Assembly (NCBI GenBank): GCA_051531975.1
Contig: JAOPTT010000009.1
Span: 1-64,000, forward strand
Reading direction: 5' to 3'
Length of the DNA stretch: 64,000 nucleotides
Origin: Spirochaetaceae bacterium
Lineage (GTDB): Bacteria; Spirochaetota; Spirochaetia; DSM-2461
The translations under genes were made by a program, and so were the position numbers. The notes beneath the pieces are model-generated. The model was not told the origin of the DNA and searched no databases. It worked only from the letters and a program-made list of their open reading frames with translations. Positions 5,887 through 53,536 of this stretch are shown here, in pieces (positions within the stretch are counted from its first letter, which is position 1; each line of letters starts with the position of its first letter).

Positions 5887-5912
5887 TATATAATCCTTTT
5901 TCTTGAGTTTTT

Positions 5913-5972
5913 ATATGAAAGGGTGTATTCTTTCATATGGAGTATTATATTGCTGTTTATTACCTTTGTCAA
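5913..5972 (-). promoter_or_regulatory. Consensus sigma70 promoter plus operator ATATGAAAG-N8-CTTTCATAT
   Basis: Minus strand TTGACA(5972-5967)-17 bp-TATAAT(5949-5944); inverted repeat 5913-5938 immediately downstream. Confidence 0.8.
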
Positions 5973-6197
5973 TTTTTAAACGAATATGAATATCCATATT
6001 AAATACTTCTAAAACTGGTCAATATTTAAGTATATATATTCTAAAAGTGGTCTTGGGAGTGTTTAGAGTGTAGTTTTAGATCAATATTTGATAAGAAATA
6101 GTCATTTCCTGCCATTGTGGTATGGGAAAAACAGACTTATTATATTATATGATCTTATTTTCGATTAATTGATGAAAAAAATGTATGAGGTGAAGAG

Positions 6198-8576
6198 ATG
6201 AAAGCAGATAAAAACAATAGTAGAGAACTGGTTTTAACCGATAGAATTAAGAATCTGAAAGAGAATATGTTAAAAGAACCAAGGTTCATGTCTTTAGAAC
6301 AAGCAAAGATTATAACTAATTGTTATAAAGATAACGATGGGGACTCTATTGCTCTAAAAAGAGCTAAAAGTTTAACTGCTTCACTATCTCAGATAACTAT
6401 AAAAATTGATCCTCTAGAATTGATTGTAGGAAATAGAACTCCAGGAGTACGTGGAGGAGTTGTTTTCCCTGAGGCGGGTAGTTCCTGGATTAATGGGGAA
6501 ATAGATACTTTGGCAACCAGGCCCCAGGATAAGTTTAATGTAAGGCCTGAAGATATTATTGAATTTAAAGAGAATATATATCCTTATTGGGAAGGAAAAT
6601 GTCTAGAAGATATTATTAAAAATAAAATAGGTGATGAAATTAGTGAAATAGGTAAAGTTGCTAAAATAAATCAAAAAGATCATGCCCAGGGACACATCTG
6701 CCCAAATACAGAAAAATGGCTGAAAATTGGACCTGTTGGATTAAAAGAAGAATCTGAAATTAAACTTAAAACAGCAACTGCAAATCAGCTAGATTTTTAT
6801 AGAAGTGTAATAATTGTCCAAGAAGGGGCAATTCTATTTATGAAAAGATATGGCCAGTTAGCATCTAAGTTAGCTGAAAATCCTGAATATAGTGATAGCC
6901 GTATAGGATTGTTGGAAATTAGTAGAATCTGTCTGAAATTAGCAAAAAGCCCTGCAGAAACCTTTCATGAAGCTCTACAATCACTGTGGTTTTTATATGT
7001 AATACTTCAAATGGAATCAAATGCTTCATCATTTTCTCCAGGTAGGGCGGATCAGTATCTATATTCATATTATCAGAAAGACATTGAATCCGGAATTATC
7101 GAGAAACAGGATGCACTTGAGTTAATCGAAGCCTTATGGCTGAAGTTCAACCAGATTGTGTACCTGAGAAATTCCCAGGGTGCAAAATATTTTGCTGGAT
7201 TCCCAATAGGTTTTAATATAGCCTGCGGTGGTCAGACTGAAGATGGACAGGATGCTTCAAATGATCTGTCCTACCTATTTCTTAAAGCTCAAAGCCATAT
7301 ACTTATGCCTCAGCCAAACCTGTCCGCCCGTCTTTTTAAAGATTCGGATGAAAAATTTGTTGATGAGTGTAGTCGTGTTATAGGAATGGGTAGCGGTATG
7401 CCTCAGATATTTAACGATGAAGGGGTTATTCCTGCTCTTATGAATGTTGGTATAGGTGAAAAAGATGCAAGGGATTATGCCATTGTTGGTTGTGTAGAAT
7501 TAACAACTCAAGGTAATAATTTAGGTTGGAGTGACGCTGCTATGTTTAATCTGATGAAAGCTCTTGAATTGACTCTAACTAATGGTGTCTGCCTTCTTAC
7601 TAGTAAAGAGATGGGATTAAAAACCGGAACACTAAATGACTATGAAACCTTTAAAGATCTTGAAGATGCTCTTGAAAAGCAGCTGAAATACTATATAGAA
7701 CGTATGATTAAAAGTTGTGAAGTTGTTGATGTAACCCATGGAGAAATCCTTCCTTCGGCTTTCCTTTCCAGTGTAATCGATGATTGTATAGGTAACGGTA
7801 GGGATGTAACTGTAGGTGGAGCTTTTTACAATCTCTCAGGTATACAGGCAATACAGGTGGCTAATCTTGTAGATAGTTTGGCTGTTATTAAAAAAATGGT
7901 ATTTGAAGATAAATCTATTTCAAAAGATGAGTTTTTAAAGGCTTTAATTTGTAACTGGAAAGGGAAAGAGCCTCTAAGACAGTCTGTTCTTCATAAAGTA
8001 CCTAAATATGGAAACGATGTGAAATGGGTTGATGATTTAGGAAACCAGTGGGTTGAGTTTTTTGCTGGTCAGTTAAGCAGGTATACCAATGTCCGTGGTG
8101 GTATTTATCATACCGGTCTATATACTGTTTCTGCTCATGTTCCTATGGGACAAAATGTTGGTGCTTCAGCCGATGGAAGAATGGCCAAGGATCCACTTGC
8201 AGATGGAGGAGTTTCGGCTATGTACGGCCGTGATGTTAGTGGCCCAACAGCTCTGCTTAATTCTGTTTCCAGAATTAACTCAAAATTAGCTAGTAATGGA
8301 AGTTTATTAAATATGAAATTTTTACCGGAGTTTTTTAAGACATTTGAAGGGGTTAAGAAATTCTCTTCTCTTTTAAGAACTTTTGTAGATCTTAAAATTA
8401 ATCATGTACAGTTTAATGTTCTTAAAAAAGAGGATCTTGTTGCAGCTAAAAAAAATCCTGAGAAATATTCAAGCTTAACAGTTCGAGTTGCAGGATATAC
8501 TGCATATTTTACAGACTTAGCATCAGATCTGCAGGATGAAATTATTGCAAGAACCAGTTATGGAGAAGTTCAGTGA
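6198..8576 (+). CDS. pflD: Glycyl radical enzyme, PflD-like
   Basis: Single-Cys GCVE, VRVAGY glycyl motif; TRPQDKF, ESNASS, YFAGFP, YTVSAHVP segments recalled from E. coli PflD. Confidence 0.85.
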   Translation: MKADKNNSRELVLTDRIKNLKENMLKEPRFMSLEQAKIITNCYKDNDGDSIALKRAKSLTASLSQITIKIDPLELIVGNRTPGVRGGVVFPEAGSSWINGEIDTLATRPQDKFNVRPEDIIEFKENIYPYWEGKCLEDIIKNKIGDEISEIGKVAKINQKDHAQGHICPNTEKWLKIGPVGLKEESEIKLKTATANQLDFYRSVIIVQEGAILFMKRYGQLASKLAENPEYSDSRIGLLEISRICLKLAKSPAETFHEALQSLWFLYVILQMESNASSFSPGRADQYLYSYYQKDIESGIIEKQDALELIEALWLKFNQIVYLRNSQGAKYFAGFPIGFNIACGGQTEDGQDASNDLSYLFLKAQSHILMPQPNLSARLFKDSDEKFVDECSRVIGMGSGMPQIFNDEGVIPALMNVGIGEKDARDYAIVGCVELTTQGNNLGWSDAAMFNLMKALELTLTNGVCLLTSKEMGLKTGTLNDYETFKDLEDALEKQLKYYIERMIKSCEVVDVTHGEILPSAFLSSVIDDCIGNGRDVTVGGAFYNLSGIQAIQVANLVDSLAVIKKMVFEDKSISKDEFLKALICNWKGKEPLRQSVLHKVPKYGNDVKWVDDLGNQWVEFFAGQLSRYTNVRGGIYHTGLYTVSAHVPMGQNVGASADGRMAKDPLADGGVSAMYGRDVSGPTALLNSVSRINSKLASNGSLLNMKFLPEFFKTFEGVKKFSSLLRTFVDLKINHVQFNVLKKEDLVAAKKNPEKYSSLTVRVAGYTAYFTDLASDLQDEIIARTSYGEVQ

Positions 8577-44047: not shown

Positions 44048-44748
44048 TTGATAAATCTTAAAAGCCAAACTTTAAATAATGCTTCAAAATATATTTTTAA
44101 ACTCATTTTAGATTTACCAGCACTACGTTCAATAAAAACGATAGGAAATTCTAAAAAACTAAAACCATTTTTAATTGCCCTAGTTTTTAGTTCAATCTGA
44201 AACATATAACCCTTTGATATTATAGAATCAAAATTGATAGATTCTAATACTTCTTTTTTCCAAAAATTGAAGCCACCAGTCATATCTTTTATTCCACTTT
44301 GTAGAATTATTCTAGAATATAATGACCCATATGAGGATATAATACTTCTAAACCGACTCCACCCTTCAATACCTCCGCCATTAATATATCTAGAGCCAAT
44401 TACAAAATCACACTTCTCATCAAATTTAGACATCATGGATTTTAAATACTTGGGTTGGTGGGAAAAGTCAGCATCAAATTGACATATATAATCATAATTG
44501 CTATTTAAAGCCCATTTAAATCCTTGAATATATGCGTAAGCTAACCCTTCTTTAATTTTACTTTCCACTAGATAAAGGTTTTTAGTTCGAATCATAAGGT
44601 CTTTTACACATAAGTTAGTACCATCGTTTGAATTACCGTCAACTACTAAAATATCTACATGGGGACAGTTACTAAAAACTTTAGTAATAATATGGCTAAT
44701 ATTTTCAATTTCGTTATATGTTGGTATTATAATCAAGTTTTTTGACAT
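44044..44748 (-). CDS. Polyprenol monophosphomannose synthase-like GT2
   Basis: IIPTYNE, DADFSHQP, IGSRY..GG, DMTGGF, GYMFQIE, ER..GKSKM. Confidence 0.9.
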   Translation of the reverse strand: MSKNLIIIPTYNEIENISHIITKVFSNCPHVDILVVDGNSNDGTNLCVKDLMIRTKNLYLVESKIKEGLAYAYIQGFKWALNSNYDYICQFDADFSHQPKYLKSMMSKFDEKCDFVIGSRYINGGGIEGWSRFRSIISSYGSLYSRIILQSGIKDMTGGFNFWKKEVLESINFDSIISKGYMFQIELKTRAIKNGFSFLEFPIVFIERSAGKSKMSLKIYFEALFKVWLLRFIK

Positions 44749-44827
44749 AATGCCATAATAAAGCTTCATATTATAGCTGTCAATAATAAAGCTTGTCAGA
44801 GATTATCATATATATTATTATCAAATA
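44749..44827. promoter_or_regulatory. Back-to-back sigma70 promoters, both abutting start codons
   Basis: Minus: TTGACA(44783-44778)-17-TATTAT-6-ATG 44748; plus: TTGTCA(44793-44798)-17-TATTAT-6-ATG 44828. Confidence 0.7.
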
Positions 44828-45472
44828 ATGAAAAAGCTCATCATACTTTTTATATCAATCCAATCAATATATTCAAATAATTTTGACCAGTTAAACCAAG
44901 CAATTAAAAAATTAGATTATGACAAAACATTATTGAGTTTTGAAGCTGAAACAACAATATCTAATTATAATAAGATTACAGCTAAAACTTTAGTTAAATA
45001 TGATCCAAAGAATAAAGACCCTTATAGTTTGTTATTAAAAGATGATAAACCTCCTACTGAAATAGACATTAAAAAATATAAAAAACAGAGAAGTAAAAAC
45101 AAAAGTTTTAGTGCTGTAGATTATTTAGGAAAAACATTTACCTTTGTCTCTCAAGAAGATGATATTGCATATTATACCTTCACTTCGAAAAAAAATATTA
45201 TCCCAGGTTTTCCTTCAAAAATGCCAGGAAGATTATGGCTAGATGTGACAAATAAAATGATTACAAAAGTTGAAATATTAAACAAAGAAAAAAAAGTCAT
45301 ATTCCCAGGTGTTTCTCTGAATATGTTTATAATGGAACTTAAATTTTTACCATTTAATAAAGATATTACAGTTTTAGATTCAATGGATACATTTATAGAT
45401 GCCAAAATCTTTACTAAAAAGCTTAAACAAAAAATTAAAACAAGAACAAAGAACTATCTATCTGTCCCTTAG
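44828..45472 (+). CDS. Exported hypothetical protein
   Basis: 214-aa ORF with short signal peptide MKKLIILFISIQSIYS; beta-rich GRLWLD segment. Confidence 0.7.
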   Translation: MKKLIILFISIQSIYSNNFDQLNQAIKKLDYDKTLLSFEAETTISNYNKITAKTLVKYDPKNKDPYSLLLKDDKPPTEIDIKKYKKQRSKNKSFSAVDYLGKTFTFVSQEDDIAYYTFTSKKNIIPGFPSKMPGRLWLDVTNKMITKVEILNKEKKVIFPGVSLNMFIMELKFLPFNKDITVLDSMDTFIDAKIFTKKLKQKIKTRTKNYLSVP

Positions 45473-45487
45473 TGACGATGCAAGAAT

Positions 45488-45528
45488 TAAATAATTATAT
45501 TGTCATAATTATTTATAGCATATATAAT
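45488..45528 (+). promoter_or_regulatory. Promoter of the radical SAM/Tat cluster with an inverted repeat over the -35
   Basis: TTGTCA(45500)-17 bp-TATAAT(45523); TAAATAATTAT-N6-ATAATTATTTA at 45488-45515. Confidence 0.6.
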
Positions 45529-45562
45529 TTGGTATAATTTTAAAAAAAATGGATGGTATAAA

Positions 45563-46573
45563 ATGGCTAATATTCTCCTTACCGAACAGTGCGTAAGATC
45601 ATGCCCATATTGTTTTGCTAAGAAACATATGGAGAATTCTGAAAATAAAAACTTGCAATGGGAAGATTTTATTTATATTGTTGATCTTTTTGAAAAGAGA
45701 AACCCTAGATATATGTCTCTTTTAGGTGGAGAACCTACTCTACATAAACATTTTGTAGACTTTGTTTTATACTTAATAAATAGAGATTTTGGTGTAACAG
45801 TTTTTACAAGTGGTATTATGAGTCCTTCTAAATTAGAGGCTTTAAAAAAGGCTTTAGCAGAGTTTCCAAAAGCAAAGGTAAGTTTTGTTGTAAATCTAAA
45901 TCATCCATCAATGTCTGATGAGAAAGAACTAGAGAGAATTGATGCATTTCTAGATGAGTTTGGAGAGAGTTGTACTTTAAGTTTTAACTTTTATACGTTA
46001 GATATGGAGATGGAATATCTTTTTGATTATATTGAAAGATTTAACTTAAATAGACATATTCGAATCGGTTTAGCTCATCCAATTCCAGGAGAAAAAAACC
46101 TTTGTATTCCTACTGACCAATTTGACGAAATGGTCGAAAAATTAGCAACATATATACCTATGTTTATTAAATATAGAGTTAGCCCTGGGTTTGATTGTGG
46201 ATTCCCACTTTGTAAATTTACCGATGATCAATTAGGTAAATTTAAGAAATTAGAAAAAGGTAATGGCTCAGGTTCTGTTAAATTTGGTTGTAATGCTGCA
46301 ATTGATATTGGTCCAGATATGACTGTATGGTCTTGTTTCCCTTTATCTAAGTATCATAGAAAAAGTCTATATGACTTTGATTCAGTTGATGCTGTTTATG
46401 AGTATTATCAAACAATGCATTATAATGTGAGAGATAAAAAAGCTGGAGTTTTTGAAGAGTGTGAAGGATGCCGATATCAAGAAAGTGAGTTATGTAAAGG
46501 TGGTTGTCTTGCGCATATAGTTAATACTGATGAAAGCATTATTAAGGAGGCTAGTGGTGTTAAACGTAACTAA
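45563..46573 (+). CDS. Radical SAM/SPASM protein
   Basis: CVRSCPYC, LGGEP, C...IGPD.TVWSC, CEGC...CKGGC. Confidence 0.92.
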   Translation: MANILLTEQCVRSCPYCFAKKHMENSENKNLQWEDFIYIVDLFEKRNPRYMSLLGGEPTLHKHFVDFVLYLINRDFGVTVFTSGIMSPSKLEALKKALAEFPKAKVSFVVNLNHPSMSDEKELERIDAFLDEFGESCTLSFNFYTLDMEMEYLFDYIERFNLNRHIRIGLAHPIPGEKNLCIPTDQFDEMVEKLATYIPMFIKYRVSPGFDCGFPLCKFTDDQLGKFKKLEKGNGSGSVKFGCNAAIDIGPDMTVWSCFPLSKYHRKSLYDFDSVDAVYEYYQTMHYNVRDKKAGVFEECEGCRYQESELCKGGCLAHIVNTDESIIKEASGVKRN

Positions 46574-47429
46574 AAAAATAATTGTTGCTGCTTATGAGCC
46601 AAAGTTTGCAAATGATATTGGTAAACAGAAAATAGTATATTACACAGATAAATTAGAAGACGTTCTTACAATTTATGGTGATGCCATAGATAAAAACGAA
46701 CTTATGTGTATAAAAGTTGATACTGATAAAAATCTATCTGAACTTGAATTTAAAGATGAATGGCAAAGTATTCCAATTGCCCTTTATACTCCATCTGTTG
46801 GTGATCTATCAGAGATGTTAATACAGGGTAAGAAACTAAAAAAGTTTAATATCCAGATTTTCTTACCAATAGAAAATAAAGATACAATTAGAGATCTTAG
46901 AATACTTTCTTCTGTCGGTATCAATTGTGGTTTTTATATTAAAGATGAAAATTCAGATGTAGACTGGGAACAAGTTGATGATCTTTTTTATTACTATGCT
47001 TATACAAATACTGAAAAAGGAAATATAGAACCTTTTAGATATATAATTGAAAAAGACTATAGAGAAAAATCATTTGATTTTAGAGCTGTAATATTTGATG
47101 ATCCAAATAAATTTGTTTATGTAGACAAGGATTTTAACTATTCAGTAAATCTTGATGAACTTACTAAAGGTTCTTTTCTTGGTAATGGAATTGATGAGTT
47201 AAAATCATATATAAATGAAGAAATAGATTATGTTTCAAAAAAATCAGATATGTTTTCTAAAAATGAAATCTGTTCATACTGTAGTAGTTGGAGGTTTTGT
47301 AGATCTAATTATTTTTCTCAATGTCAAAAGAATGAAACATATAAAATGTTGTTTGATAGTGTTTCTGATTATCTTGAAGTTCGAGTAAAACAACCATCTC
47401 AGAATGTGGAAAAAAAATGGCAGTTATAA
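46557..47429 (+). CDS. Hypothetical protein with a C-terminal SPASM-like Cys cluster and no CxxxCxxC
   Basis: CSYCSSWRFC...C; AAGGAGG RBS before GTG 46557; overlaps both neighbours. Confidence 0.7.
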   Translation: MLNVTKKIIVAAYEPKFANDIGKQKIVYYTDKLEDVLTIYGDAIDKNELMCIKVDTDKNLSELEFKDEWQSIPIALYTPSVGDLSEMLIQGKKLKKFNIQIFLPIENKDTIRDLRILSSVGINCGFYIKDENSDVDWEQVDDLFYYYAYTNTEKGNIEPFRYIIEKDYREKSFDFRAVIFDDPNKFVYVDKDFNYSVNLDELTKGSFLGNGIDELKSYINEEIDYVSKKSDMFSKNEICSYCSSWRFCRSNYFSQCQKNETYKMLFDSVSDYLEVRVKQPSQNVEKKWQL

Positions 47430-48523
47430 TTTTTAAGGCTATTGAATATTGTAATTCAAATTGTATTTATTGCAGCGTTATAGAGAAAGATGAAGGCCAT
47501 ACTATGAGTTATGAAAGGCTTGAAACTGTTTTTATACGTATGAACCAATATTTGGAAGAACTTCCAGACGAGATAATCGATTTTACTTGGCATGGAGGGG
47601 AAGCAACCTTATTAGGTCCTGAATATTTTAGAAAAGCTTTAGAGTTTCAGAATGTTCACTGCAAAAAGACTAAGAATAGGATTAAGCATATAATACAATC
47701 TAATTTAACATGTATTACCCAAGAAATTATTGATGTTCTTAAAGACCTAGGTATAAACTCAATAGGATCAAGTTATGATCCTATTGAGGGAATTAGAGGG
47801 ATTGGTAAAAATAGAGACTCTAAATTATATAAAGAATTGTTTTTTAAAGGTGTTGATTTAGTTGAGAAAAATGGAATGACTTGGGGGATTATTTATGTTG
47901 TTCATAGAAGATCTTTAGAAGACCCCGTAGGAATTTTTAACCATTTGTCAAACTTAAATTTAGGCACATCTCCTGTTTTTAACTGTATATATTTGTACGA
48001 GGATGATAAACATCATTTAAGTATTACCCCCGAAGAGTTTGCGGACTTTTTAGGAGCTCTTGTCCCTTTATATATGGAAAATCCTGAAAAATATAAATCT
48101 ATACGACCACTAAGCATGTTTATTGACTCTATAAAAGAAAAAACACCATTAGGTTGTGATTATGCAGGAAATTGTGCAAATTATTGGCTATATATTGGAC
48201 CTACTGGTGAACTATCCCACTGTGGTAGAGCAGGTGATCAAAGAATAATAAGTTATGGAAATATCGACGATACTAGCCTAAAGGAAGCACTAAATCATCC
48301 TTACCGGAAAAAAATACTTGCTAGACAGACGTATTTGGTTGATAATGATTGTAAAGGCTGTAAATATTGGGGCATATGCCATGGTGGATGTCCAGTGGAT
48401 GCATTGTCTATGACTGGTGACATTATGAATAAAGCTATGTCATGCGAAATGGTAAAAAGATTAATGTCAAAATATATTGAACCCTTAGTTGATAAAGAAG
48501 TGCAATTTTATCCTAATAATTAA
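47417..48523 (+). CDS. Radical SAM/SPASM peptide maturase-type enzyme (anSME-like)
   Basis: CNSNCIYC, WHGGE, QSN, SYD; full SPASM C..C..G..C...CKGCKYWGICHGGCP...C. Confidence 0.92.
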   Translation: MAVIIFKAIEYCNSNCIYCSVIEKDEGHTMSYERLETVFIRMNQYLEELPDEIIDFTWHGGEATLLGPEYFRKALEFQNVHCKKTKNRIKHIIQSNLTCITQEIIDVLKDLGINSIGSSYDPIEGIRGIGKNRDSKLYKELFFKGVDLVEKNGMTWGIIYVVHRRSLEDPVGIFNHLSNLNLGTSPVFNCIYLYEDDKHHLSITPEEFADFLGALVPLYMENPEKYKSIRPLSMFIDSIKEKTPLGCDYAGNCANYWLYIGPTGELSHCGRAGDQRIISYGNIDDTSLKEALNHPYRKKILARQTYLVDNDCKGCKYWGICHGGCPVDALSMTGDIMNKAMSCEMVKRLMSKYIEPLVDKEVQFYPNN

Positions 48524-48553
48524 AGTTAGGTTTTATATAAAGAGGTGTGAATT

Positions 48554-48760
48554 ATGAATGAGAAAGAAATCATGGAAACTGGATCAGAGAGCAAAGTAAT
48601 TTCTAGAAAGGAAGCTTTAAAAAGAATTTCTAAGATCGGTTTAGGTATTGGTGCTGCAGTTGTTGCTACAAGTTGTGATCTTTATTATTACGACTATACT
48701 TATAGTGACTATAGTGATTATTATTACAGCTACTATGTTTATACAAACTACTACTGGTAA
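48554..48760 (+). CDS. Putative RiPP precursor: Tat-type lipoprotein signal plus Tyr-rich core
   Basis: GAGGTG RBS; SRKEALK, h-region IGLGIGAAVV, ATS-C, core CDLYYYDYTYSDYSDYYYSYYVYTNYYW. Confidence 0.8.
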   Translation: MNEKEIMETGSESKVISRKEALKRISKIGLGIGAAVVATSCDLYYYDYTYSDYSDYYYSYYVYTNYYW

Positions 48761-48763
48761 TCT

Positions 48764-48970
48764 ATGCTGAGTTTTGTAGAGATTGCAATAGTAGGTGGAG
48801 CGATTCTTTTAATTTTTGGATCAACGAAACTTCCAAAATTGGGCCGAACAATGGGTCAAAGTTTGACAGAGTTTAAAAAAGGACTTAAAGAGGGTATGAC
48901 AGATACTAATGTTACTGATGAAAAGAAAGATGAAGAAGTAGCTGATAAGTCTGATATTGTGAATGAGTAA
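48764..48970 (+). CDS. tatA: Twin-arginine translocase TatA/TatE
   Basis: EI...LLIFGSTKLPKLGRTMGQSLTEFKKG. Confidence 0.93.
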   Translation: MLSFVEIAIVGGAILLIFGSTKLPKLGRTMGQSLTEFKKGLKEGMTDTNVTDEKKDEEVADKSDIVNE

Positions 48971-49673
48971 TACATTAACATTTTTTGAACACGTCAAAGA
49001 ACTTAGAAATAAATTAGGAATCTCTTCCATTGTATTTGTAGTGGCATCTGTGTTTGGTTACATAATTTTTCCATCTGTAATTAGTTATTTTAATAACTTT
49101 TTAGATGTAGGACTTCATGTAACCAAATTATATGAGGGCTTTTTTATGCGAGTGCAGGTTTCTCTTTATATTGGTCTTATATTTTTTATACCAGTTTTTT
49201 TATTAAATCTTTTGTTATTTATAGTCCCAGGTTTTGAGAAAGGTGATAAAGCAGTATTTGTTTCATTATTTCTTCTCAGTATCATTTTGTATGTAGTTGC
49301 TATACTTTCAGTTAGTATCTTTTTACCTATCACTATAAATTTTCTTCAATCAAAATCTTTTATTCCTGATACTCTTAATAAGATATTTTCATATGGTGAA
49401 TTTATAGATTTCTTTTTTACTTTTTTGTTAGCATTTTGTGTATCATTACAGTTTCCAGTTGTATTATTGGTTTTGCTGTATTTCAAAATATTAAAAACTG
49501 CTTGGTTAACTAAGTTTATTCCATACTTTGTTCCTGTTGCATTATTGTTGTCAGCAATAATGACTCAAGATATACTTTCTCAATTTTTGGTTGCAGTACC
49601 ACTGTTTGTTTTATATTTATTGTGTATCTTAGCTGCAAAGAAGTTAAAATGGGGTGTTGATGATATTTCTTGA
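48963..49673 (+). CDS. tatC: Twin-arginine translocase TatC (divergent)
   Basis: EHVKELRNKL, FIVPG, QFPV, TQD..SQ...AVP...LY; about 6 TM segments. Confidence 0.88.
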   Translation: MSNTLTFFEHVKELRNKLGISSIVFVVASVFGYIIFPSVISYFNNFLDVGLHVTKLYEGFFMRVQVSLYIGLIFFIPVFLLNLLLFIVPGFEKGDKAVFVSLFLLSIILYVVAILSVSIFLPITINFLQSKSFIPDTLNKIFSYGEFIDFFFTFLLAFCVSLQFPVVLLVLLYFKILKTAWLTKFIPYFVPVALLLSAIMTQDILSQFLVAVPLFVLYLLCILAAKKLKWGVDDIS

Positions 49674-51288
49674 AATAATTGCAATTCTTTTTATTATTTT
49701 TATTATTAATCCACAAAACTCTGTTTCTATGTTACGGAAAGCTGGTGTTTTAGTTGGAAAATTAAGAAAAGTAATAAATCAATTAAAATCTTATTCTAAA
49801 GACTTTAATATAACTAATCTTGATAATGAAGTTGCAGGTAATAAAAATAGTGGGGTAAATGTTAATAATGGAAAAGCTGACCATTCAACCACAGTAACAA
49901 AGATGGTTCTTTTAGATGTTATTGAAGCTAGTTATAGTATTAACATGACAAAAAATATAATTCCTTTTCTATTTGATAACAATCCAGATATTGTAAGTAA
50001 AACTATTACTATCTTAAAAAAGGATCCTCTGTTTTCATTTGAAAAGAGAGATTCATTTAGTAACTGGAATGTTGAAAAATTAGTAAGGAATCCCAATTCA
50101 GAATATTTTAATAAGGTTTTTGATCCTAATAGAGTTGCTGAAGTATCAGGAGCTATCTTTAGTATTCCTAAGGAATCTTTTGAGAAACATTATAAAAATC
50201 TCGCTGACTTTAACGGTATAGATAATTTAAACATGAAAACAATATTTTCTAAAGATAAAAGCTCATTTTTTGGTGAGTTTAAAAACTTAAGAAAAAAATA
50301 TATCGCTAAGTGCTATCCTCCACAGGGATTTGTATCACCTAGTTATAGATGTAATCTAGATTGTTCCTATTGTTTTTCTAAAGACTTATTGCAAAAATTT
50401 AATAACGATATGACAGTTGAACAATTTACATTGTATTTAAAAAAGCTTAAGGCTGACTATAATATTAAGGAAATTGGATTTTTTGGTGGTGAACCAACTT
50501 ATTTCAAAAAATTAAATGAGTTTATAGATGTAGTTGAAAATGAAAAACTATTTTGTAATATTGCCTCAAATGGTATTGTTGAAAATCAAATCTGGGAAAA
50601 AATTGTTTCTAGAGGTAGTCTAGCAATGATTACATTTCATATTGAGGATAATGATTTTTATACTAACGATACCCACTTACCTAATATTATATCTAATATT
50701 AAAAGTGCTAACCAATTTAAAAAACAGATAACTTTTAGATATAATATCGTAGATAGTGAGAGAACTGATTGGAGTTTTCTAAATAAATATATTGATTTAG
50801 TTTCACAGTTTAGGTTTAGTTTTGCTATTCCATTTCCTTCTGGTAATGGTGAAAACGAATATGTATCATTAGATGAGTTAAATAAATTTGGAAAAACAAT
50901 TGTTTCTATGATCGATCATATAGATTTTTATAGTAGAAATAGACCATATGAAATTGTATTAGCTAAACCTATACCTCTATGTGTTTTCTCTGAAAAAGAA
51001 TATTTGAGAATTTTAGAAAAAGTCAGATACAAAAATGTATGTGAAATTGATAAAAATAATAATACAAATAATCTTATAATTAATCCTGATGGTTCATACC
51101 AGTCATGTGTAGGTTTAAATAAAGACAAGTACATATTCAATGACTTTTTAGGTCAAGAGTCTCTTCCTAGCAGTTATCATATGAATATTGATAGAGTTAT
51201 AAATAAACCAATGATGGATGACTGTAAAAAGTGTTATCTATTTAATATCGGAGTCTGCCAAGGGGCTTGTTATGCCTACACCCAGTAA
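49660..51288 (+). CDS. TatB-like N-terminus fused to a radical SAM/SPASM domain
   Basis: LEIIAILFIIFIINPQN TM plus amphipathic helix; CNLDCSYC (50350-50373), FGGEP, INPDG.YQSC, CKKC...CQGAC. Confidence 0.8.
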   Translation: MIFLEIIAILFIIFIINPQNSVSMLRKAGVLVGKLRKVINQLKSYSKDFNITNLDNEVAGNKNSGVNVNNGKADHSTTVTKMVLLDVIEASYSINMTKNIIPFLFDNNPDIVSKTITILKKDPLFSFEKRDSFSNWNVEKLVRNPNSEYFNKVFDPNRVAEVSGAIFSIPKESFEKHYKNLADFNGIDNLNMKTIFSKDKSSFFGEFKNLRKKYIAKCYPPQGFVSPSYRCNLDCSYCFSKDLLQKFNNDMTVEQFTLYLKKLKADYNIKEIGFFGGEPTYFKKLNEFIDVVENEKLFCNIASNGIVENQIWEKIVSRGSLAMITFHIEDNDFYTNDTHLPNIISNIKSANQFKKQITFRYNIVDSERTDWSFLNKYIDLVSQFRFSFAIPFPSGNGENEYVSLDELNKFGKTIVSMIDHIDFYSRNRPYEIVLAKPIPLCVFSEKEYLRILEKVRYKNVCEIDKNNNTNNLIINPDGSYQSCVGLNKDKYIFNDFLGQESLPSSYHMNIDRVINKPMMDDCKKCYLFNIGVCQGACYAYTQ

Positions 51289-52195
51289 GGTTGGAGTCAA
51301 TTACATAATATTCAATGAACTCTGGGACGATGTTTTAGAAAATGAAAGTAATCAACCTATTAAGACAATTGAGCTAAATAAGTTAAAAACTATATATTTT
51401 GACTATTTATCAAATGCTTTAAAAAACCTACAACAATCACATACAAATATCGCAGTAACTGTTTGGCTAATTGAGATTTCTGAATCAGGTATAAAAGAAG
51501 TCGATCTTAGAGAGCAATTATTTAATACATTACCATACGTAAGAATTTATACAATTCCATTCATGAAAATAAGAAATTATATTTCAGCTGCAAAGAGACT
51601 AGCAAAAGGATTATATAGATCTCCTAATGAATTACACGAATTTTTAATTCTACATATAATAAAACTATCAACAACTCCTTATATTGCTATTTTAGACACT
51701 GATAATCTATTTCTAAGGCAAGATGCTTTGAATATTATTTTCCAATCATTAGAAGAAGATAAAGATAAATGGATAGGTTGTATCATGGAAAAAGGTATTA
51801 AGAGACCTTATAACGATGGATTCACTCAAATGAGAGAGAGAATGCATAGTGTAGCCCTTTTTATTATTAAAGATCGATTTAATAAAGGATTTACTGAGAC
51901 AACAAATTGGCGGATAGATACTTTTGATAAAGTTAAATTAATACAAAATGATGAATGCAGAGATTATTATCATAAGTATAAATTCTTCGATACTTTGGCG
52001 TTGTTAACCGATCTATTTAAATATAACTTTGGTGTAAATAGAATAAAAGAGTTAAACAAAGAATTAAACTCCCAAGAGTTTGAAAAATTAACCATAGTTA
52101 ACGATCTTTTTGTTCATAGTAAATATTTGCATGGAATAGATTATATTTTTGAAAACTTAAAAGATAATAAATTCATTTCTTCAATTCAAAGGTAA
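51272..52195 (+). CDS. Glycosyltransferase-like (GT-A, DxD) hypothetical protein
   Basis: H...L...TTPYIAILDTDNLF, late FVH; AAGGGG RBS before ATG 51272; overlaps the upstream gene. Confidence 0.55.
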   Translation: MPTPSKVGVNYIIFNELWDDVLENESNQPIKTIELNKLKTIYFDYLSNALKNLQQSHTNIAVTVWLIEISESGIKEVDLREQLFNTLPYVRIYTIPFMKIRNYISAAKRLAKGLYRSPNELHEFLILHIIKLSTTPYIAILDTDNLFLRQDALNIIFQSLEEDKDKWIGCIMEKGIKRPYNDGFTQMRERMHSVALFIIKDRFNKGFTETTNWRIDTFDKVKLIQNDECRDYYHKYKFFDTLALLTDLFKYNFGVNRIKELNKELNSQEFEKLTIVNDLFVHSKYLHGIDYIFENLKDNKFISSIQR

Positions 52196-52202
52196 AAAAA
52201 GT

Positions 52203-52255
52203 CTTTTACGACTAAAGTATGATGTTATTAATCACTTTTACACCTATAGTCTGAT
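52203..52255 (+). promoter_or_regulatory. 21-bp direct repeat pair with 32-bp period (candidate LuxR-type sites)
   Basis: CTTTTACGACTAAAGTATGAT / CTTTTACACCTATAGTCTGAT, 17/21 identical. Confidence 0.55.
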
Positions 52256-52303
52256 ATCGTTTTAATATATTAAATACTAATCTTATCTTATATGGAGGTC
52301 GCA

Positions 52304-53536
52304 ATGTCAATGTATAAAATAGTATTAGTAATAATTAGTATTTCACTTCTATTTTCATGTACAGAGCAAGAGTATTTAGAATTAACGGGTGATTATTCTA
52401 TTGGAACATCAGTTTTTGAATTAGAAGACAAATCAAGGTTAGAATATTATTCTGAGGAAGTATCTGAAAATAGAACAATTGTAATCAGAGCATGGTATCC
52501 AATTGAAGCCAAATCGGGTAAAACACTTCCACAATATAATGGTAAGGGAGTAGCAAAAGAATTTCAAAAACTTTTTGGTATACCTTCCTTTTTAATGAAA
52601 GATAATATTGGAAGAGCCTATACTGATGGAAGCCCTTTAAAAGGTAAATATCCTGTAGTCATTTTTAATCATGGTTTTAGTTCATGGGAATCTCAAAATG
52701 CTACAACAATGGAAGAAATAAGTTCCAACGGTTATGTTGTGCTAAGTATAAATCATCCATACGAAAGCCTTTTTACTCAATTTAATAATATGGATAGTGT
52801 TAAATTCTCTATACCTGGTTATAAAGATAAGCTTAAAGCTATGAATAAAGATATTGATGATATAACTAACGAGTTAATACAAATGGTTAAAACTATTAAA
52901 GAAGCAACTACTGAGAAGTTATATAAAGAAGCTGTTATTAAAATTACTCAATCAAAGGCTTACAAACCTGTTTTCCCATCTTTAAAATTGTGGATTGAAG
53001 ATACAGCTTTTTTAATCTCATCTCTAAATGATATTAATTTAAGTAATATAATCGACAGTGATAATATTGCAGTTATAGGTCACTCTTTTGGAGGACTTGT
53101 ATCTAGTGAACTTTCAATGTTAGGAATTAGTGGTATTAAGTGTGGCATAAGTTATGATGGACCTGTTCTATTTGATAATATGAATAAAGATATTTCTCTG
53201 AAAACCCCATTTCTATTTTTAGCAAGTACCAATGCTAAGTATGGAAAAACTGTTGTTGATCTGTCAGGTCAAAATGATTTTTTAACAACAAAAACTGATA
53301 AAAAAGTTATTTCAGGCTCAATAAATGGTAGTGGGCATTATAATTTTTCAGATATGGGTTATGTCTCTTTTCTTAAAAGAACATCGATGTTAGGTCCTAT
53401 TGATGGAGTTAAGTCGTTACAAATTATGAATGGTATAACACTGTCTTATTTAGACCATCATTTAAAAGGTGAAGTTGATCCAACCAATTCTTGGTTAAAA
53501 ATTTACCCTGAATGGAATGTAAGCAGATCTAACTAA
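52304..53536 (+). CDS. Alpha/beta hydrolase lipoprotein (PAF-acetylhydrolase-like)
   Basis: Lipobox LFSC, PVVIFNHG, NHPYE, GHSFGG, HYNFSD. Confidence 0.87.
   Translation: MSMYKIVLVIISISLLFSCTEQEYLELTGDYSIGTSVFELEDKSRLEYYSEEVSENRTIVIRAWYPIEAKSGKTLPQYNGKGVAKEFQKLFGIPSFLMKDNIGRAYTDGSPLKGKYPVVIFNHGFSSWESQNATTMEEISSNGYVVLSINHPYESLFTQFNNMDSVKFSIPGYKDKLKAMNKDIDDITNELIQMVKTIKEATTEKLYKEAVIKITQSKAYKPVFPSLKLWIEDTAFLISSLNDINLSNIIDSDNIAVIGHSFGGLVSSELSMLGISGIKCGISYDGPVLFDNMNKDISLKTPFLFLASTNAKYGKTVVDLSGQNDFLTTKTDKKVISGSINGSGHYNFSDMGYVSFLKRTSMLGPIDGVKSLQIMNGITLSYLDHHLKGEVDPTNSWLKIYPEWNVSRSN

Follow-up and report, generated by a model that had tools for sequence, protein, structure and literature searches.

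Is a radical SAM enzyme built into the Tat receptor of a spirochaete and, if so, is its peptide substrate modified at the export gate? The question is raised by a gene next to tatC in the window, that is, the whole stretch of 64,000 nucleotides analysed here (positions 1 to 64,000, forward strand, contig JAOPTT010000009.1, Spirochaetaceae bacterium assembly GCA_051531975.1). A preliminary description of this DNA had read the gene as an in-frame fusion of a TatB-like membrane anchor with a radical SAM/SPASM maturase. Tat exports folded or matured substrates, and the control of maturation before export has long been debated, the main answer being soluble chaperones that bind the signal peptide. 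A natural fusion between a receptor subunit and a maturation enzyme would, if the two functions are coupled, offer a compact and genetically tractable model of maturation and export, with six to eight genes, one small substrate, and roles accessible through a 50-residue module.

A conserved fusion gene overlaps tatC

The frame following tatC is open from GTG 49654 or ATG 49660 to the stop at 51286-51288, encoding 544 or 542 amino acids, with no stop or frameshift inside. ATG 49660 is the favoured start, because homologues begin MI.LEI or MVLIEI. From this start the gene shares 14 nt with the end of tatC (stop 49671-49673), and the uninterrupted ORF first reported directly after tatC, at 49660-51288, was recovered as such. 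The protein comprises, in this order, a transmembrane (TM) helix, an N-P hinge, a basic amphipathic helix, a polar linker, a HEAT-like helical domain and a radical SAM/SPASM core.

Homologues with the same N-terminus are 33-59% identical to the window's protein over 84-100% of its length. Whether homologues are fused or split had been asked at the outset, and both states were found: in a family set of 15 proteins (33-100% identity) the N-terminal module is complete in 9 and partial in 2, and unfused relatives exist too. When 169 family proteins were fetched and searched with a profile of the 9 modules, 19 proved to carry this N-terminus, and they come from many independent assemblies; 10 of these 19 had not entered the profile and were matched at E values of 6.7e-20 to 9.5e-8.

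Could a small tatB gene have been joined to a radical SAM gene by an assembly error or a frameshift? The contig of a second assembler shows 0 differences over 48500-51400, although it probably derives from the same sample. The same architecture recurs in 8 loci and in the 19 proteins, which belong to many assemblies. We consider this artefact, whose probability is next to nil, as refuted, because the fusion architecture is conserved. The one RNA run of the same sample gave no match to the stretch. We conclude that the fusion of a TatB-like module with a radical SAM enzyme is natural and conserved.

Relationship of the N-terminal module to TatB

The module covers residues 1-48 (49660..49803, + strand) and reads MIFLEIIAILFIIFII-NP-QNSVSMLRKAGVLVGKLRKVINQLK. 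In an AF2 model, residues 2-16 and 18-48 are helical, the two helices being interrupted at N17-P18. The TM stretch has a mean Eisenberg hydrophobicity of 1.11, and the helix SMLRKAGVLVGKLRKVINQLKS carries a net charge of +6 and a hydrophobic moment of 0.47, compared to 0.24 +/- 0.12 in shuffles, 84 out of 2000 of which reach 0.47. The protein would most likely have this single N-terminal TM segment, with the remainder in the cytoplasm. The 9 modules are 23-47% identical to each other and share invariant E5, P18, R26 and G29. E5 and P18 align with the Glu and Pro of TatB chains in the PDB; the Glu near the N-terminal end of the TatB TM helix has a functional role.

Results of profile searches in both directions were as follows. 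When the profile of 9 modules was run against the PDB (177,635 sequences), the top four matches were TatB (7e-5, 2.6e-4, 0.02 and 0.069), all aligned from residue 1 to residue 1, the fifth being TatAd. The tatB model TIGR01410 matched 8 of the 9 modules (best 2e-7) and TatB_Rickett 7 of 9; the tatAE model matched a single one, at 0.46, and the best PF02416 value among the 9 was 0.003. An hhalign comparison of the modules with the TatAs of the clusters gave 90.5% probability (E 1.4e-6). Seven modules of other genomes, combined into a profile, matched a short ORF beside an ordinary tatC in 10 out of 10 loci of relatives (1.9e-10 to 7.4e-7). These short ORFs are stand-alone TatBs, and they score above any TatA with that profile. 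Conversely, when all 14,315 frames of the genome were ranked with a profile of these 10 TatBs of related spirochaetes, the fusion N-terminus headed the list (E 6.7e-4), followed by TatA (0.0079) and by a third frame at 0.79; 18 family proteins were matched as well, at 3.4e-13 to 6.9e-5. A profile of 10 ordinary TatAs found the TatA of the genome, not the module. The noise level is shown by an unrelated TM protein (535 aa) encoded in the genome, which scored 0.0023 to 0.053 with module profiles.

The window's own module is the most eroded of the set. The usual start MF.(I/L)G, kept by other members, is missing its first three residues here, and the stand-alone TatB profile gives this module 19.7 bits, compared to 25-43 for 15 other members. 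Scanned with Pfam, neither the whole protein nor its first 67 residues matched PF02416 at E<=1. None of the 15 homologues did so as whole proteins at E<=0.1, and the protein database's precomputed table lists 2 of 28. On TIGR01410 the window's protein reaches 15.1-15.6 bits, below the curated cut-off of 56.5. The profile check suggested by the preliminary description gave no PF02416 match for the window's protein, and TIGR01410 matched 8 of 9 modules, with the window's protein below the curated cut-off.

These failures leave some room for a chance or convergent likeness, in which a generic TM segment and amphipathic helix would have no common origin with TatB. Curated cut-offs are not reached, and a profile restricted to the hinge and amphipathic helix matched 7 PDB entries of which none was a Tat protein, so that the TatB signal needs the TM part; the Pfam TatA/B model is known for TM-driven false positives, according to a passage of PMC2912341. 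The specificity of the reciprocal profiles, which put the module and then TatA at the head of 14,315 frames and find stand-alone TatBs at 10 of 10 loci, speaks against it, as do the four TatBs in register at the head of the PDB ranking. Moreover, other members start MF.IGF.EL, as the E. coli TatB chain does. Chance likeness is, in our judgement, very improbable, and the sequence comparisons indicate that the module is a divergent TatB, homologous and not merely TatB-shaped. The TatB/TatA-type N-terminus announced in the preliminary description, with its Glu, NP and basic amphipathic helix, is thereby upheld by the reciprocal profiles and the PDB ranking. Its view of NP as a non-canonical hinge does not hold among related spirochaetes: their stand-alone TatBs carry NP, RP, KP or GP, and also the RK.G motif present in the module.

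The linker, the helical domain and the enzyme

The linker following the module (residues 45-75, 31 aa; 49792..49884, + strand) is polar and poorly conserved, with pLDDT <50 for residues 41-73. Across 11 fused alignment rows its length varies between 28 and 78 aa and no position is conserved.

Next comes an all-helical domain (residues 76-226; 49885..50337, + strand), HEAT-like at its start and common to unfused relatives. Modelled alone with AF2, it is all-helical (pLDDT 87.2). With VIA-align, the matches were alphaREP (Z 7.1, rmsd 1.3 Å over 48 residues) and YibA (Z 6.6), below the informative level of the tool, and a profile of the domain run against the PDB retrieved a synthetic fusion protein (3.2e-4) and iE5 ALPHAREP (0.07). 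HEAT families of Pfam matched 0 of 15 members at E<=0.1. Of the HEAT-like segment described earlier, the helical nature holds, with alphaRep/HEAT proteins as best matches, whereas the HEAT assignment itself is left with weak Z values and no Pfam match. The domain is also found in loci L003 and L011, whose ORFs have no module-profile match, L003 being cut by a contig end.

The radical SAM core and SPASM-type tail (50338..51288, + strand, stop included at 51286-51288), called rSAM3 below, match PF04055 at 2.9e-12 (47.5 bits, cut-off 29.5). The CNLDCSYC motif pointed out in the preliminary description is confirmed at residues 231-238 (CX3CX2C), with PF04055 above its cut-off, and is followed by GGE at 276-278; C231, C235, C238 and G276-G277-E278 are invariant in the 15 homologues. 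So are seven C-terminal Cys (441, 461, 483, 522, 525, 533 and 537). As for the SPASM-type tail, these Cys and the fold matches argue for it; on the other side stand TIGR04085, which stops at 24.1 bits, just below its cut-off of 27, PF13186, which matches 5 of 15 members (E<=0.1), and the spacing of the last four Cys, CX2CX7CX3C. With Foldseek, the rSAM3 model retrieved SuiB (1.2e-10), SkfB (1.8e-8), anSME (4.1e-8) and CteB (5why, 1.8e-7). No NCBIfam equivalog was reached, the best score being 48.7 bits for a cut-off of 380. By its motifs and modelled fold, rSAM3 matches radical SAM/SPASM enzymes of the RiPP maturase type.

The operon and its candidate precursor

The conserved gene order is rSAM1, an unknown gene, a DynA/DarE-like rSAM2, the precursor, tatA, tatC and the fusion, TatB::rSAM3. 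Between cluster genes there is either an overlap or a gap of 3-30 nt, and terminator-like sites within 44700-52400 were looked for and none was seen. The best promoter-like site on the + strand is at 45500-45528, such sites being no commoner in the region than in shuffles.

The first gene, rSAM1 (45563..46573, + strand), encodes a radical SAM/SPASM-like protein of 336 aa (PF04055 5.7e-15), kept at the same position in L005-L010 and L035 with 46-65% identity. The second encodes a conserved protein of 299 aa (46530..47429, + strand) with no Pfam or NCBIfam match; it is kept in 8 loci, with four invariant C-terminal Cys (C248, C251, C257 and C265). A profile search of the PDB gave no relative for it, and ESM Atlas a weak SPASM lead (17% of one cluster). 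The third, rSAM2 (47417..48523, + strand), is a SPASM maturase related to DynA/DarE and anSME. It scores 4.5e-40 and 137.7 bits with DynA (NF041298, cut-off 450), and 2.6e-38 and 131.9 bits with DarE (cut-off 650); because these scores are below the equivalog cut-offs, rSAM2 is related to DarE/DynA but no member of either. On TIGR04085 it reaches 46.5 bits, above the cut-off of 27. The last gene of the cluster in the window (51218..52195, + strand, likelier start ATG 51272) encodes a conserved protein of 325 aa that belongs to no Pfam or NCBIfam family. Homologues placed after rSAM3 were found only in L003 (50% identity) and L011 (30%), and ESM Atlas gave a weak Glycos_transf_2 lead (20% of one cluster).

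The putative precursor (68 aa; 48554..48760, + strand) consists of a Tat-type signal with SRKEALKR, a G/A-rich h-region, a lipobox-like VATSC and a 28-aa core containing 14 Tyr. A gene of this type is single among 44,724 frames of the genome. In 10 of 10 homologous precursors, R[RK]xAL[KE]R is present (RR in 8, RK in 2), a Cys lies 23-28 residues past the Arg pair, and the core is 36-59% Tyr. Tat signals typically combine a motif of the S/T-R-R-x-F-L-K type with a moderately hydrophobic h-region behind it. The window's precursor has RK instead of RR, and no Tat-signal profile (TIGR01409 or PF10518) matches it. The precursor of L008 obtains 16.3 bits on TIGR01409, whose cut-off is 16.7, and its residues 14-39 match the model of the Iro iron oxidase (NF041615) at 1.8e-4.

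The lipobox consensus at the end of a signal peptide is [LVI][ASTVI][GAS]C. The Cys of the precursors is found in the contexts ATSC, ASSC, AASC, AAAC, VSSC, TTSC, and also LSRC and FVDC, and the genome encodes the lipidation enzymes LspA and Lgt. Judging from these sequences the invariant Cys may be a lipobox; it could instead be a cross-link site. The finding points to an uncharacterised group of Tyr-rich peptides that are products of radical SAM enzymes. In Bacteroidota these peptides carry an ordinary leader; in spirochaetes and one myxobacterial genome they carry a Tat signal and perhaps a lipid anchor.

The Tat system of the genome and its link to the fusion

Both other Tat components of the cluster are readily identified. 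The product of tatA (48764..48970, + strand) matches PF02416 at 5.7e-14 (51.5 bits, cut-off 21), and that of tatC (48963..49673, + strand, 236 aa) matches PF00902 at 2.4e-33 (116 bits). In this genome, which is 98% complete, they are the only matches to PF02416 (at E<=1) and PF00902, respectively. No Tat signal was found in the genome with TIGR01409 or PF10518 at E<=10, while controls were positive in 12 of 14 genomes. Genome G009 offers the same picture. In relatives, 6 of 8 Tat-signal matches lie within about 4 kb of a tatC. A crude scan of all ORFs for RR motifs picked out 33 ORFs, judged by eye to have ordinary membrane or Sec-type N-termini.

A profile of the cluster-linked TatCs matches Aquifex TatC along its entire length (9.5e-41). 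A branch with SH-aLRT 97 separates all 7 cluster-linked TatCs from 10 ordinary ones of the same order. Every locus with the module also has a tatC no more than 2.3 kb away (8 of 8: the window, L004, L006, L007, L008, L009, L010 and L035); the unfused relatives L005 and L011-L021 have neither module nor nearby tatC (0 of 12). L003, cut by a contig end, was left out of this count. The fusion gene sits beside tatC, the position of the stand-alone tatB in relatives, and where a genome has 2-3 TatCs, the fused form is still found with the TatC of its own lineage. We conclude that the fusion is co-inherited with this lineage.

The fused proteins do not form one clean clade. Explaining their distribution on the tree takes 3 changes; the single-clade hypothesis fails the AU test (p 0.024), and with it a single fusion origin as a strict clade. 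One gain followed by losses, or truncated gene calls, could possibly account for the scatter.

One may ask whether the protein is just the general TatB in an organism that has one Tat system, the precursor being modified in the cytoplasm before targeting and the fusion serving co-expression and stoichiometry alone. The genome does hold a single Tat system and no second TatB-like gene, and the disordered linker of 28-78 aa would permit the two parts to act independently. Such a general TatB would have little to serve, as the Tat-signal searches of the genome yielded nothing else, and it does not fit the pairing of fused form and own TatC lineage where 2-3 TatCs are present. We regard it as improbable.

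Proposed working at the export gate

Our preferred reading, which may equally prove right or wrong, is that a TatB paralogue had its short cytoplasmic tail replaced by the linker, the helical domain and the maturase, and that modification takes place at the export gate. The fusion, with the adjacent tatA and tatC, would constitute a substrate-dedicated Tat translocase within a RiPP-like operon that encodes three radical SAM enzymes, whose substrate would be the 68-aa precursor encoded just upstream. The TatB module would lie in the membrane, N-terminus outside, on the TatB site of TatC, and would hold the Fe-S enzyme at the cytoplasmic face of the receptor. As the signal peptide of the precursor docks on TatBC, the Tyr-rich core, still cytoplasmic, would be within reach of the tethered enzyme and could be modified there, most likely by cross-links between aromatic residues, as with SuiB- and DarE/DynA-type enzymes. 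TatA would then move the rigidified peptide across the membrane, and the Cys might be lipidated. Homology, topology and gene linkage suggest both the docking of the module on TatC and the modification of the receptor-bound precursor; the order of events, the chemistry and the lipidation are what such a scheme would predict. A complex prediction of TatC with the module alignments (score 0.00, mark 0.32) speaks neither for nor against binding.

A stricter form of this scheme, which we put forward tentatively, would be catalytic proofreading within the translocase. Modification and export would be mechanically linked, TatB::rSAM taking the place of TatB in TatBC, so that every receptor would be equipped with Fe-S enzymes of its own. 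The core would be cross-linked while docked, and the finished peptide alone would be released to TatA and then lipidated.

TatA and TatC suffice for Tat transport in many bacteria, and the module need not be a working TatB, because many bacteria run Tat in this way. The TatB-derived segment might then be an anchor and nothing else, keeping the Fe-S enzyme membrane-bound in the vicinity of the export site, without specific contact to TatC and with a minimal TatA-TatC transport. Besides the existence of TatAC-only systems, the erosion of the window's module, both in its start and in its score, and the lack of a detectable TatB signal in the amphipathic helix taken alone would agree with this. 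A bare anchor, however, has no need for the TM Glu, hinge Pro and helix Arg and Gly that stay invariant at 23-47% identity; nor does it explain that the module occurs solely where tatC is nearby (8 of 8 loci against 0 of 12), or that the gene retains the place of a stand-alone tatB. On balance we hold the bare anchor to be rather unlikely.

The preliminary description had further raised the possibility that TatBC stands in for an RRE. This was not borne out: unfused relatives (L005, L011 and the Bacteroidota loci) keep the helical domain beside Tyr-rich precursors, without Tat genes nearby. Since they serve such precursors without Tat genes, substrate recognition in the enzyme family is not TatBC-dependent in general. 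The recognition element is more likely the helical domain or the conserved 299-aa partner. No RRE or PqqD-like domain matched in any cluster protein with Pfam or NCBIfam; a divergent RRE inside the 299-aa partner is possible.

If the coupling of modification to export is real, the peptide would represent a previously unknown class of Tat-exported, membrane-anchored poly-tyrosine RiPPs.

Comparison with known systems

Stand-alone TatBs (TIGR01410; E. coli 2mi2 and 9dzz; spirochaete L025-L034) share with the fusion the TM helix with its Glu, the Pro hinge, the basic amphipathic helix, the tatC-adjacent gene and the reciprocal profile matches. They differ in being 71-122 aa long with a short acidic or polar tail, where the fusion runs on for about 490 aa, misses the curated cut-offs and, in the window's member, begins without the first three residues of MF.(I/L)G. 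A large cargo can thus replace the TatB tail, which is useful for placing engineered enzymes at the Tat gate.

As regards dedication to one substrate, the closest case is TatAd-TatCd of Bacillus subtilis, reportedly a translocase dedicated to PhoD. There too a TatA/TatC pair is encoded beside the single substrate it serves, but no enzyme is known to be fused to a translocase subunit in systems of that type, and their substrates are folded enzymes, not a short modified peptide. Peptide-modifying enzymes placed at an exporter are found in the lanthipeptide field, where NisB and NisC act with the transporter NisT in a membrane-associated modification-export complex. That assembly is non-covalent, relies on an ABC transporter, contains no Tat component and performs a different chemistry.

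With known RiPP maturases (SuiB, SkfB, CteB, DarE/DynA, anSME), the enzyme has in common CX3CX2C, GGE, the seven-Cys SPASM-type tail, the fold and the small precursor gene. It departs from them by a helical HEAT-like domain where an RRE/PqqD-like domain would be, by a leader that appears to be a Tat signal instead of a cytoplasmic leader, and by a membrane tether via TatB.

Finally, the REMPs (TorD, DmsD and the NarJ family; PMC4464133) are cytoplasmic factors linking maturation of a Tat substrate to its export, as proposed here; they are soluble, separate, signal-peptide-binding and non-catalytic, whereas the present candidate, an enzyme, forms one polypeptide with a translocase subunit. REMP families were not detected with Pfam among the cluster proteins.

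Searches of PMC (8.1 M papers) and bioRxiv (0.36 M preprints), which leave subscription journals uncovered, returned no TatB-enzyme fusion, no Tat-signal RiPP and no tyrosine-rich radical SAM peptide, and within that scope the earlier impression that such a fusion had not been described is upheld. A search of longer proteins with the module profile for other TatB-enzyme fusions, rated as weak evidence by the tool, returned 11 proteins. Nine were known family members, and the other two were P0170, automatically named TatA/radical SAM by one source, and P0171, a protein of 143 aa with PF03938.

A tat-containing gene cluster with three radical SAM enzymes

Between 45563 and 52195 every gene lies on the + strand, separated by gaps of 3-30 nt or overlapping. 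The first is rSAM1 (45563-46573), a radical SAM enzyme of 336 aa. It is followed by a 299-aa protein (46530-47429) that matched no known family, by the second radical SAM/SPASM enzyme, rSAM2 (47417-48523), and by a small ORF (48554-48760) encoding a putative 68-aa precursor. Then come tatA (48764-48970, Pfam TatA, 5.7e-14), tatC (48963-49673, Pfam TatC, 2.4e-33), the fusion ORF of 542 aa, which runs from ATG 49660 (GTG 49654) to 51288 and whose enzyme part is rSAM3, and an unknown protein of 325 aa (51218-52195, likelier start ATG 51272). No terminator-like site was found from 44700 to 52400. On the + strand, the best candidate for a promoter-like site was at 45500-45528, in a region where the frequency of such sites was no higher than in shuffled sequences. 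All three enzymes were matched by the Radical_SAM model of Pfam. For rSAM2 a relationship to DynA/DarE and anSME was detected (4.5e-40), at scores far under those equivalog cut-offs.

The fusion is conserved

An uninterrupted ORF after tatC had been reported in the preliminary description, and it was borne out, the frame being free of internal stops from ATG 49660 to 51288. In a search of 5.8 billion proteins, the fusion protein had 14 homologues, with 33-59% identity and 84-100% length coverage. Whether these were fused or split was then read from their alignment with the window protein: the N-terminal module (transmembrane helix, N-P hinge and basic amphipathic helix) was complete in 9 of the 15 rows, partial in 2 and absent from 3, the last row (P0003) being cut by a contig end. 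Among 1.84 billion cluster representatives, 188 family proteins were found at E<=1e-30. A profile built from nine modules detected the module in 19 of the 169 that were fetched, including 10 that were not in its training set (E 6.7e-20 to 9.5e-8). The start MF.IGF.EL of several modules is also that of TatB from E. coli. Conservation of the fused architecture excludes that two genes were joined by an error of assembly or a frameshift. The contig of a second assembler, with zero differences over 48500-51400, adds weak support, since it probably derives from the same sample. We conclude that the fusion is almost certainly real. Both of its halves had already been noticed by automatic annotation: the source name of one homologue joins TatA and a radical SAM enzyme, and PF02416 was precomputed for 2 of 28 homologues.

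Relationship of the N-terminal module to TatB

The TatB-like character attributed to the N-terminus was upheld by reciprocal profile searches, but not by curated thresholds. The window protein gave no match to PF02416 (MttA_Hcf106) at E<=1, and on TIGR01410 it reached 15-16 bits, under the cut-off of 56.5. PF02416 itself gathers false positives driven by transmembrane segments, 283 of 2085 matches being deemed problematic in a published analysis (PMC2912341). A TatA profile did not find the module in a search of the genome, and a profile of the hinge and amphipathic helix alone matched none of the Tat proteins in the PDB. With the module profiles, an unrelated membrane protein of the genome reached E 0.0023-0.053, which sets the noise level. 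This protein (C6_-_285775_535, a 535-aa stop-to-stop frame on the - strand of contig C6) starts with MLEIILFIFIVVLIS..., lacks the hinge proline, and illustrates the transmembrane-driven noise of TatA/B-type profiles.

Searched against 177,635 PDB sequences, the nine-module profile placed TatB chains in the first four ranks (E 7e-5, 2.6e-4, 0.02 and 0.069). The four alignments all start at residue 1 and take in the amphipathic helix; TatAd came fifth. TIGR01410 was matched by 8 of the 9 modules (best 2e-7) and tatAE by one, at 0.46. Aligned with the cluster TatAs, the module gave an hhalign probability of 90.5%. In what we regard as the clearest comparison, we scanned ten ordinary tat loci of relatives in the same order (L025-L034) with a profile of seven modules, all from genomes other than that of the window. 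An ORF of 71-122 aa beside tatC was matched in 10 of 10 (1.9e-10 to 7.4e-7), and these short ORFs outscored every TatA. They are evidently stand-alone tatB genes. Their products share an RK.G motif with the module and have NP, RP, KP or GP at the hinge, a departure from the textbook GP; each ordinary tatC is adjoined by a stand-alone tatB and a tatA.

For the reverse search, a profile was made from these ten stand-alone TatBs only, with no sequence of the enzyme family in it. The N-terminus of the fusion ORF ranked first among 14,315 stop-to-stop frames of the genome (E 6.7e-4), TatA was second (0.0079), and no further frame fell below 0.79. The same profile matched 18 family proteins (3.4e-13 to 6.9e-5); among 2,276 ORFs of loci L003-L021, which carry the enzyme family in relatives, its matches were the six fused ORFs and, beyond these, just TatAs. 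On these profile comparisons the module is very probably a divergent TatB homologue. The window's copy is among the most eroded and, by curated thresholds, is not a member.

Linker, helical domain and enzyme core

The AF2 model of the whole fusion protein (pLDDT 76.9) has helices at residues 2-16 and 18-48 with a break at N17-P18, disorder at residues 41-73 (pLDDT below 50), then a confident helical domain, a radical SAM barrel and a Cys-rich tail. Across fused homologues the linker between module and helical domain is polar, unconserved and 28-78 aa long. Top Foldseek matches were RiPP maturases and anSME (SuiB at 1.2e-10, SkfB, anSME, CteB, TigE, ChlB). Modelled by itself, the helical domain had a pLDDT of 87. 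This segment had been called HEAT-like. It is indeed helical, and its first 50 residues matched repeats of the alphaRep/YibA type, but at Z 6.6-7.1, under the informative level of the tool; a search with its sequence profile gave 0.04-0.07 for alphaRep-type designs and 3.2e-4 for a synthetic fusion protein. The label is therefore plausible but weak.

Co-occurrence of the module with tatC

Module and tatC were found together, within 2.3 kb, in 8 of 8 loci (the window, L004, L006-L010 and L035), the tatC of L007 being of a different type, downstream and on the opposite strand. Both were absent from 12 of 12 others (L005, L011, and the ten Bacteroidota and other loci L012-L021); L003, cut by a contig end, was left out of the count.

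The enzyme family is rare and patchy, being present in 3 of 38 genomes of the order and in 3 of 401 sampled from the phylum, one of the latter matching the core alone. On the enzyme-core tree the fused proteins cluster: the fused state needs 3 changes, versus 14.0 in shuffles, none of the 500 shuffles being that low. A single clade of fused proteins was rejected (AU p 0.024). In a quick tree, one group of 16 rows takes in 15 of the 18 fused proteins.

A putatively dedicated Tat system

The window's genome (98.5% complete) encodes a single TatA and a single TatC, both in the cluster, and the stand-alone-TatB profile found no further TatB-like frame in it. Two Tat-signal models gave zero matches there at E<=10, controls being positive in 12 of 14 genomes. 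A crude RR-motif scan returned 33 ORFs, judged by eye to have ordinary membrane or Sec-type N-termini. Genome G009, of the same order, has the same operon, whose tatC is its sole TatC, and likewise no Tat-signal match. Relatives with ordinary TatCs have 2-4 such matches, 6 of 8 lying within ~4 kb of a tatC; Tat loci of this family therefore seem substrate-linked in general. In G016, G012 and G002, also of this order, the matches lie a few kb from tatC. In other carrier genomes, which hold 2-3 TatCs, the Tat system of the cluster is thus an additional one. Identity to the window TatC is 35-63% for cluster-linked TatCs and 25-31% for ordinary ones; the seven cluster-linked sequences fall together to one side of a branch with SH-aLRT 97.

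The precursor and a wider family of tyrosine-rich peptides

The 68-aa precursor consists, in order, of a signal SRKEALKR, an h-region ISKIGLGIGAAVVATS, a Cys and a 27-residue tail with 14 Tyr. Precursors of all ten loci share R[RK]xAL[KE]R (RR in 8, RK in 2), with the Cys 23-28 residues past the R[RK] motif and a core of 21-49 residues, 36-59% Tyr. One homologous precursor scored 16.3 bits on a Tat-signal model (cut-off 16.7), and its residues 14-39 matched the Iro iron oxidase model NF041615 at 1.8e-4. The Cys may be lipidated: in 8 of 10 precursors its context fits a relaxed form of the lipobox, and LspA and Lgt are present in the genome. Alternatively, the Cys could take part in a cross-link. 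For signal peptidase II (Peptidase_A8) the genome has two matches, at C6:457702-458130 and C9:507000-507410.

TatBC had been proposed to stand in for an RRE, and Pfam and NCBIfam detected no RRE-like family in any cluster protein. The proposal is argued against by seven Bacteroidota loci carrying unfused relatives of rSAM1 and rSAM3. In these (7 of the 10 loci L012-L021), an ORF of 38-57 aa lies between the enzyme genes; its ordinary leader, common to the seven, ends in VQGS and is followed by a core rich in Tyr, for example LYYTTLYYTSLYYYH (L012:6486-6605, L013:6486-6605, L015:6407-6571, L016:2061-2177, L017:6535-6708, L019:6411-6584 and L020:6455-6586). These ORFs lack a Tat signal, match no NCBIfam model, and look like an undescribed family of tyrosine-rich radical SAM peptides. 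The enzymes are therefore part of a system for tyrosine-rich peptides that is uncharacterised, and to which some lineages later added the Tat signal and TatB fusion. Unfused relatives beside non-Tat peptides argue for the fusion adding proximity or coupling.

In the TatB topology, all sequence past the transmembrane helix lies in the cytoplasm, the compartment in which an enzyme that depends on Fe-S clusters and SAM has to act. The simplest account, to which we give about an even chance, is a TatA/TatC/TatB::enzyme machine that would modify its one substrate at the receptor, the same machine then exporting the product. We consider it fairly probable that the module docks on TatC; that the precursor is modified while docked is a more tentative proposition. 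The main rival to this account, in which the module serves today just as a membrane anchor, we regard as less likely. The earlier statement that its author knew of no described TatB-enzyme fusion of this kind agreed with a full-text literature search covering few subscription journals, which returned no such fusion, no Tat-signal RiPP and no tyrosine-rich radical SAM peptide. All parts are of known kinds; their combination appears new.

Variation among the clusters

The 299-aa protein is kept in all spirochaete clusters, and in its C-terminal part four Cys, spaced CxxC-x5-C-x7-C, are invariant. Its role may be that of an Fe-S or SPASM-like partner, or else of the peptide-recognition subunit. 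In the Myxococcales locus L011, whose precursor lies upstream of rSAM1 and whose flanks are without tat genes, the rSAM2 homologue (5912-7798) has 628 aa and is extended at its N-terminus by 237 residues, which BLAST did not match to the 299-aa protein. The 325-aa protein, whose likelier start overlaps the end of the fusion gene, is conserved in L003 and L011 only; it has a DTD motif, and the Atlas points weakly to glycosyltransferase family 2. In two further loci (L009:5459-7164 and L010:3225-4930), tatA and tatC are separated by two extra genes, one of 192 aa with a lipoprotein-like N-terminus and the other of 376-398 aa.
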